From NCBI RefSeq assembly GCF_003019035.1, contig NZ_CP027447.1: a stretch of DNA of 64,000 bases; one strand, 5' to 3'. Positions 54,424 through 54,464 of this stretch are shown here, in pieces. The notes beneath the pieces were generated by a model, which was not told the DNA's origin, made no database searches, and saw only the letters and a list, made by a program, of their open reading frames with translations. Position 1 is the stretch's first letter. Each line of letters begins with the position of its first letter. This DNA comes from Escherichia coli. Its GTDB lineage: Bacteria; Pseudomonadota; Gammaproteobacteria; Enterobacterales; Enterobacteriaceae. Position numbers and translations under genes: made by a program.

Positions 54424-54464
54424 TCCCCTCACCCCGGCCCTCTCCCCAAAGGGGCGAGGGGGAA
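54424..54464. repeat. Box C-like GC-rich palindromic repeat
   Basis: TCCCCTCACCCCGGCCCTCTCCCCAAAGGGGCGAGGGGGAA; near-identical copy at 59965-60003. Confidence 0.5.

Follow-up and report, generated by a model that had tools for sequence, protein, structure and literature searches.

Two short palindromic elements in the araD-araA and yabI-thiQ spacers of an Escherichia coli strain, assigned to the Box C family of dispersed repeats

The two short palindromic elements found in the araD-araA and yabI-thiQ spacers of the E. coli strain analyzed here are, judging from their sequence, almost certainly members of the dispersed repeat family named Box C, PIT, TMECO or HPG, the first (copy 1) being of type B and the second (copy 2) of type A. 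Taken as a whole, the best explanation of these elements, and a probable one, is that they belong to this known family and have no dedicated cellular function. Both are variable among strains, and the spacers in which they lie carry REP or BIME sequences in other strains. The family has been described since the 1990s and was re-described in 2000, 2015 and 2016, so that it is already known under four names (Box C, PIT, TMECO and HPG1/HPG2). Its earlier descriptions are reportedly those of Bachellier (1996-1999) and of Hoyne and Maher (2000, 2002), and the original Box C consensus of Bachellier et al. is said to be 56 bp long.

Identity and structure of the two elements

The original prediction placed two near-identical GC-rich palindromic elements of about 40 bp at positions 54424-54464, in the araA-araD spacer, and 59965-60003, in the yabI-thiQ spacer, of the window (i.e. 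the whole 64-kb stretch of DNA that was analyzed). The cores were indeed found there. Copy 1 (54425-54461, 37 bp, CCCCTCACCCCGGCCCTCTCCCCAAAGGGGCGAGGGG on the + strand) and copy 2 (59966-60002, 37 bp, CCCCTCACCCTAACCCTCTCCCCAGAGGGGCGAGGGG on the + strand) are identical at 33 of 37 positions, all four differences being located in two loop segments. The predicted size suits these 37-bp cores but not the conserved unit of copy 2, which is longer (about 78 bp, 59943-60020). The gene coordinates agree with the predicted context: copy 1 is flanked by araD (53707..54402) and araA (54656..56158), both on the minus strand, and lies upstream of araD, its end being 22 nt from the araD start codon and 12 nt from the araD Shine-Dalgarno sequence, while copy 2 is flanked by the stop codons of the convergent genes yabI (59934-59936, + strand) and thiQ (60018-60020, minus strand). 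Both copies are thus strictly intergenic. A search allowing three mismatches and a search with the published consensus pattern each retrieved exactly these two sites and no further copy in the 64-kb window, and neither pattern gave any match in 100 dinucleotide-preserving shuffles.

Each copy forms an imperfect palindrome whose outer arms, 11 nt long and 15-17 nt apart, show one mismatch, and its core combines a C-rich block with two G-rich ones. On the minus strand, the core of copy 1 (54425..54461; type B mm / HPG2) is CCCCTCGCCCC TTT GGGGAGAGGG CC GGGGTGAGGGG and that of copy 2 (59966..60002; type A mm / HPG1) is CCCCTCGCCCC TCT GGGGAGAGGG TTA GGGTGAGGGG. In + coordinates, copy 1 is composed of block 3 (54426-54434), loop 2 (CCG, 54435-54437), block 2 (54438-54446), loop 1 (54447-54451) and block 1 (54452-54460).

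The TMECO consensus is CCCTCNCCC-N3-6-GGGNGAGGG-N3-GGGNGAGGG, and TMECO is stated to be the element earlier named BoxC and PIT (Holder et al. 2015, PMC4666352). Both copies agree exactly with this consensus when the minus strand is considered (54426-54460 and 59967-60001). Furthermore, copy 1 contains, letter for letter, TMECO no. 3 of K-12 MG1655 (type B, one mismatch), and copy 2 contains in the same way nos. 9, 16, 19 and 22 (type A, one mismatch) of the same catalogue (Table 1, PMC4666352). This exact match and this identity to catalogued K-12 copies support the assignment to Box C that had been proposed from the appearance of the elements. The equivalence with the original Box C is supported by later papers (Holder et al. 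2015) and not by the Bachellier consensus itself. The second loop is CCG in copy 1 and TTA in copy 2, which corresponds to type B / HPG2 and type A / HPG1, respectively; the same two subfamilies were independently recognized as HPG1 (TTA) and HPG2 (CCG) by Kaplan et al. (2016, PMC5100583), who described a 'G-quadruplex-hairpin-duplex switch'. Petrillo et al. (2008) listed BoxC among the known stem-loop families of E. coli, with a size of 50-56 bp and 22-32 copies, and the extended unit of copy 2, with its 78 bp, is consistent with this size. The two elements share with the Box C/PIT/TMECO/HPG family the three-block core, the TTA or CCG second loop, the intergenic location, the presence or absence according to the strain and the existence of decayed variants. 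They do not differ from it in kind: K-12 MG1655 simply has no element at either locus, so that neither figures in its list of 23 copies, the first of which is at 164.5 kb (Table 1, Holder et al. 2015, PMC4666352). The function of the family had been presented as not well established, and Holder et al. (2015) and Kaplan et al. (2016) indeed report no demonstrated function. The alternative that these G+C-rich sequences of low complexity are a chance or low-complexity artefact was rejected and has practically no probability, given the 0/100 shuffles, the identical copies found elsewhere and the 91,406 places occupied by the family.

The minus strand is the sense strand of araBAD for copy 1 and of thiBPQ for copy 2. 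In the minus-strand RNA, the outer blocks are predicted to form an 11-bp stem that includes one G-U pair, giving hairpins of -28.5 kcal/mol for copy 1 and -26.2 kcal/mol for copy 2; the plus strand, which has an A-C mismatch in the stem, is predicted to fold less well. The fold z-scores relative to shuffled sequences are modest (-1.4 to -2.5). The minus strand also carries a G-quadruplex motif (four G3+ tracts with loops of 1-7 nt), GGGGAGAGGGTTAGGGTGAGGGG, whose tracts are arranged as GGGG-AGA-GGG-TTA/CC-GGG(G)-TGA-GGGG. With the G-quadruplex model of ViennaRNA, the hairpin (-26 to -28.5 kcal/mol) is nevertheless preferred to the G-quadruplex (-12.6 kcal/mol), which the model yields only if the C block is left out.

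Around copy 2, an extended type A unit of about 78 bp (59943..60020) can be aligned with copies of the same unit located at eutH-eutG, entC-fepB and tktB-ypfG (85-90% identity). Its flanks TTGCATCGGCGCTGGTTTGT and ACTGTCCGTGCGCTTTT are common to the copies at other loci; these shared flanks, also given as TTGCAYCGGCGCTGGTYTGT and ACKGTCCGTGCGCTTTT, form an outer stem in the predicted fold, located for copy 2 at about 59952-60016 and followed by TTTT on the + strand (predicted energies, -34.2 and -32.9 kcal/mol). After this stem, the + strand reads UUUUAACCUUU in the yabI direction, and GCGCTTTT is retained in four of the five aligned type A copies. With its long GC stem preceding UUUUAACCUUU, this arrangement resembles a weak intrinsic terminator. 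At 60010-60030 (+ strand), the extended type A unit terminates in GCGCTTTT and abuts the thiQ stop codon. A scan with promoter and terminator consensus sequences flagged no promoter-like or terminator-like site at either copy, and there is no U-run after the minus-strand core of either of them. No Rfam family was found at either element in a scan of positions 53500-61000; the only matches, both below threshold, were to naRNA4 (RF02564) in and around the BIME array next to copy 1 (54516-54581 and 54601-54674).

Strain polymorphism and association with REP/BIME spacers

The window is collinear with positions 20.6-75.6 kb of K-12 MG1655 (96-98% identity), although its strain is not K-12. Direct alignment revealed that K-12 lacks both copies and carries REP/BIME sequence instead of Box C at both sites. 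In the araD-araA spacer, K-12 has only TCGT where the window has a 58-bp segment (54413..54470). Alignment with K-12 and five other strains shows that this strain-variable segment extends from the araD Shine-Dalgarno sequence (CTCCT, 54408-54412) to the first REP. In strains devoid of Box C, CTCCT is followed by TCGT and GCCGGATGCG, with one, two or three BIME units; in carriers, CTCCT is followed by GAGAGGTCGTTT, the core, GAAAACAAT and then GCCGGATGCG, with one or two BIME units. The array located beside copy 1 in the window (54468..54650) includes two 85-bp units and is not Box C, according to its inverted repeats, a REP motif scan and the comparison of alleles. At the same site, O145:H28 (RM13514) harbors a diverged Box C with two loop substitutions, whereas O157:H7 has none, which suggests an old polymorphism or a recombinational exchange.

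In the yabI-thiQ spacer, the variable segment (59945..60017) extends from 8 nt past the yabI stop codon to the thiQ stop codon, and a 73-bp Box C segment in the window occupies, with the same boundaries, the place of a REP pair of about 107 bp in K-12. In strain SMN013SH2, the Box C allele is decayed, a 13-bp deletion having removed one block; other alleles contain either a single REP or a REP pair truncated on its left side. The substitutions between orthologous copies affect loops or flanks and none was found in the blocks, but few were seen and the sample is tiny. Since the strains lacking the elements carry REP/BIME sequences in the same spacers, araD, yabI and thiQ can work without Box C.

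Other differences from K-12 were observed in the window. A 1.4-kb insert absent from K-12 is located between polB and araD (52274-53705); the product of its largest ORF (53217..53660, 147 aa) gives a weak match, below threshold, to SMI1_KNR4/SUKH-1 (E=0.0078), and this ORF may be an orphan immunity-type gene. Collinearity with K-12 begins right after the position of IS1A in K-12, and positions 1-6488 have no blastn match to the 12.0-20.5 kb region of K-12 (dnaK, dnaJ, IS186, hokC, nhaAR and IS1). On the minus strand, this region of the window includes a chaperone-usher fimbrial cluster encoding an usher (819..3269), a chaperone (3282..3965) and a subunit (4015..4548), and a 473-aa ORF (4849..6270) shows a weak pentapeptide-repeat match.

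The prevalence of the two copies was examined in 5,426 complete E. coli genomes by using junction-spanning queries. The araD-araA copy was found in 1,565 of them and the yabI-thiQ copy in only 182, meaning that they are absent from 71% and 97% of the genomes, respectively. Strain E24377A is one carrier of the araD-araA copy. As anticipated for a dispersed repeat, a 45-nt query showed that 5,403 of the 5,426 genomes contain members of the family itself, the number of places in a genome varying from 1 to 36 with a median of 18. These places are almost wholly chromosomal, only 46 of the 91,406 being plasmid-borne. The occupancy of other sites is much higher, reaching 3,601/5,426 genomes for tauD-hemB, 5,148/5,426 for zntA-tusA and 5,415/5,426 for aaeR-tldD. 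The copies of the window are at the rare end of a broad occupancy spectrum (about 3% to about 100% for the five sites), as would be expected for insertions of different ages. In a plasmid collection, 115 of 72,556 records match, most of them being megabase 'plasmids', F-primes or chromids, and only three of 50,697 phage records do so. The Campylobacter phages A18a and A11a each match the E. coli Box C 45-mer twice (93% identity); such matches are odd for an AT-rich host and may result from contamination or chimeric assembly.

At five of the six Box C loci examined, REP/BIME sequences are present in the same spacer in some strain. They replace Box C at yabI-thiQ, eutH-eutG and tktB-ypfG (REPs in K-12, Box C in other strains) and directly adjoin it at araD-araA and, in strain E371, at zntA-tusA. 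The exception is tauD-hemB, where the allele devoid of Box C consists of a 39-bp spacer that contains a small unique hairpin and no REP. In K-12, each of the four loci without Box C carries REPs. Since only about six spacers carry REPs in the 64 kb of K-12 compared, the overlap of Box C with REP-bearing spacers exceeds chance expectation. However, it may reflect the sharing of permissive spacers, such as 3′ ends and gaps within operons. No REP motif (of the GCCGGATGCG...CTTATCCGGCCTAC type, with a GTAG/CTAC head) was found inside the Box C cores; the motifs are located at 54470-54624, beside copy 1. Bachellier et al. (Genetics 145:551, 1997) reportedly described boxC insertions at BIME loci in natural isolates, and our reading of this association would therefore be an extension of earlier work and not the first of its kind.

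Like REP/BIMEs, Box C elements are short GC-rich imperfect palindromes that are strictly intergenic, occur as singles and inverted pairs, vary among strains and occupy the same spacers. In contrast, they have no sequence similarity to REPs, lack the GTAG/CTAC head, have three blocks instead of two arms and number about 20 per genome compared to hundreds for REPs. To our knowledge, no Y1 transposase (RAYT) accompanies Box C, and none linked to it was found at the loci examined in this analysis. Box C also resembles ERIC/IRU and other enterobacterial MITE-like repeats, which are likewise dispersed, transcribed, hairpin-forming, intergenic and polymorphic for their presence, but it is shorter (about 37-78 bp compared to about 127 bp) and shows neither terminal inverted repeats nor target duplications at the junctions examined. 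The folA-apaH spacer, which is about 85 bp long and contains a REP motif in K-12, adds a third case of a K-12 spacer with REPs that is different in the strain of the window: between folA and apaH (36247-36891), this strain carries ccdA (36323..36556) and ccdB (36559..36873), with Pfam matches to CcdA (3.6e-26) and CcdB (4.6e-31).

The three-block motif outside E. coli

A scan of representative genomes retrieved at least 120 loci with the three-block motif; one Mitsuaria genome is dominant among them, so that this result indicates the occurrence of the motif across phyla and should not be taken as a census. Among the matches listed, the same three blocks were found in Mitsuaria chitosanitabida, in a Methylomirabilota MAG, in Ca. 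Contendobacter, in another MAG and in many IMG/VR contigs. The betaproteobacterium M. chitosanitabida (NZ_BCYP01) accounts for 104 of the 120 loci and for most of the at least 166 exact matches, among those listed. Its copies have a uniform first loop (GCTTGC) and the tail TCTTCGGG, and its close pairs are mostly in the opposite orientation to the E. coli pairs. More generally, among the matches listed, loops and flanks are lineage-specific across phyla and close inverted pairs are common. An occurrence in more than 260 genomes was previously reported by Holder et al. (2015, PMC4666352).

In the exact matches listed, the variable base of block 1 is T or G, that of block 2 is almost always A and that of block 3 is T or A in 311 of 312 cases. 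Six exact hits have a base other than A in block 2, and in five of these the base of block 1 is complementary (C:G in four, G:C in one). These five cases weakly support a pairing of block 1 with block 2, although such numbers are too small to carry weight. When up to two substitutions per block were allowed, 436 hits were obtained, with obvious mis-registration in G/C runs, and most substitutions were uncompensated.

The likeness of the motifs of other phyla (ITxF G/C-rich TMs) to Box C thus lies in the 9-mers CCCTC(T/G)CCC, GGGAGAGGG and GGG(T/A)GAGGG and in the frequency of inverted pairs, whereas their loops, their flanks and the preferred orientation of their pairs differ from those of E. 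coli; both common descent and convergence are possible. Between the inverted copies of Mitsuaria and of Contendobacter lie genes for a methylase, MFS transporters, a TonB receptor, a GGDEF protein, peptidases and a LysE protein, and none of the eight proteins of this limited sample is a transposase. A REPtron-like arrangement was rejected for these sampled loci, the intervening proteins belonging to ordinary housekeeping families. In one fetched locus (L125, 6021-8179), the longest ORF, which looks by eye as if it encoded a metal-transporting P-type ATPase, appears to cross a tandem series of partial C-block repeats; the repeats of this ORF (SLPLPLAA... ending in LPLAGEGWGEG) may be an artefact of ORF calling or may reveal a repeat in a coding region.

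A proposed passenger model, alternatives and significance

If the two copies are passengers, structure-prone sequences would become established in permissive intergenic spacers, those that REP/BIMEs occupy; the established copies would then be inherited vertically, reach other lineages when the flanking genes undergo homologous recombination, and decay slowly. Within the araBAD mRNA, for copy 1, and the thiBPQ and yabI 3′ regions, for copy 2, the transcribed element would fold as an 11-bp GC-rich hairpin, but these hairpins would be transcribed passively and any effect on the neighboring genes would be incidental. We lean slightly towards a neutral or selfish mechanism. What the analysis shows is the identity of the elements, the family to which they belong, its copy number, their polymorphism among strains and their association with REP-bearing spacers; their neutrality, the way in which they spread and their folding in vivo are what we infer, and we know of no mechanism of spread for Box C. 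The passenger model is consistent with the occupancy spectrum, the decayed alleles and the lack of both copies in most strains, whose corresponding spacers contain REP/BIMEs. It is also supported by the lack of orientation bias in K-12, where the copies located in tandem gene contexts are sense in six cases and antisense in eight (tally from Table 1, PMC5100583), and by the lack of any promoter, terminator or Rfam match at the two elements. The negative functional tests summarized by Holder et al. (2015, PMC4666352) point in the same direction: no promoter or terminator activity in the work of Hoyne and Maher (2002), within what this citation of it conveys, no association with gene classes and no triplex signal in vivo. 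On the other hand, the presence of the same three 9-mers in unrelated phyla, with lineage-specific loops, suggests a selection acting on the blocks and argues against pure neutrality. The near-fixation of some sites in E. coli (5,415/5,426 for aaeR-tldD) and the sparing of the blocks by substitutions, the latter in a tiny sample, also count against the passenger model.

Alternatively, the transcribed hairpin could act in cis at the RNA level like a REP stem-loop, by shielding the upstream araBA mRNA from 3′ exonucleases, by modulating araD translation or, for type A, by terminating yabI transcription through its outer stem and U-run. We regard this as unlikely. Such roles would fit the stable predicted sense-strand hairpins (-28.5 and -26.2 kcal/mol) with their 11-bp stem, perfect apart from one G-U, the position of copy 1, whose end lies only 12 nt before the araD Shine-Dalgarno sequence, and, in the yabI direction, the outer stem of copy 2 followed by UUUU, with GCGCTTTT kept in four of five type A copies. 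However, the fold z-scores are modest (-1.4 to -2.5), the terminator scan flagged neither copy, K-12 has six sense and eight antisense copies in tandem contexts, the two copies are lacking in 71% and 97% of the genomes, and the tests of Hoyne and Maher (2002), as far as they are relayed in PMC4666352, gave no promoter or terminator activity. An effect exerted through non-B DNA is distinctly unlikely. Here, the single-stranded G-rich strand would adopt an intrastrand triplex or a G-quadruplex and thereby either stall replication or repair with local instability or act as a G4-hairpin-duplex switch. Triplexes observed in vitro by CD and NMR and a higher variability around TMECO loci (Holder 2015, PMC4666352), CD signals of G4 and hairpin (Kaplan 2016, PMC5100583) and the canonical four-tract motif GGGGAGAGGGTTAGGGTGAGGGG of the minus strand all speak for it, as do the restriction of the block 3 base to T or A in 311 of the 312 exact matches listed, as purine-motif triads allow, and the high polymorphism of both spacers of the window, one allele of which lacks exactly one block. 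Against it, published data show no triplex in vivo by DMS footprinting and no triplex signal for the duplex form, and, with the C block present, the G4 (-12.6 kcal/mol) is predicted to be far less stable than the hairpin (-26 to -28.5 kcal/mol). Moreover, REP spacers devoid of Box C are equally variable (one to three BIME units; ccdAB at folA-apaH), the G-rich strand is likely the leading-strand template in the window, given its collinearity with K-12, and the restricted T/A alphabet could come from common descent.

It is also quite improbable that Box C belongs to the non-autonomous mobile elements of the MITE or REPIN kind, with insertion in or next to REP/BIMEs and mobilization by some enzyme. 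The presence of REP/BIMEs in the same spacer at five of six Box C loci, the REPs found in K-12 at all four of the loci lacking Box C in this strain, the wide range of copy number (1-36) and the common inverted pairs would be explained in this way. However, the junctions examined are complex replacements with neither terminal inverted repeats nor target-site duplications, the alternative allele of tauD-hemB has no REP, no transposase was found among the genes sampled between inverted copies in Mitsuaria and Contendobacter, the family is nearly absent from phages (3/50,697) and true plasmids, and a shared permissive niche would account for the co-location with REPs without any targeting. The broader idea that Box C arises in or beside REP/BIME spacers, by REP-targeted insertion or by template switching from hairpin to hairpin, is similarly doubtful; if true, Box C would be a REP-dependent mobile sequence. 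The passenger model remains our preferred reading of the two copies.

As the re-identification of members of a known repeat family, the present finding matters little by itself. What it adds is modest, namely the frequency with which these sites are occupied in the population and the systematic sharing of spacers with REP/BIMEs. A by-product of this work is a natural allelic series at defined loci, comprising Box C, REP/BIME, decayed Box C and a short unique spacer. The occupancy within this series extends from 3% to about 100% of strains. The series could provide a ready-made experiment on mRNA ends, araD expression and local mutation rate.
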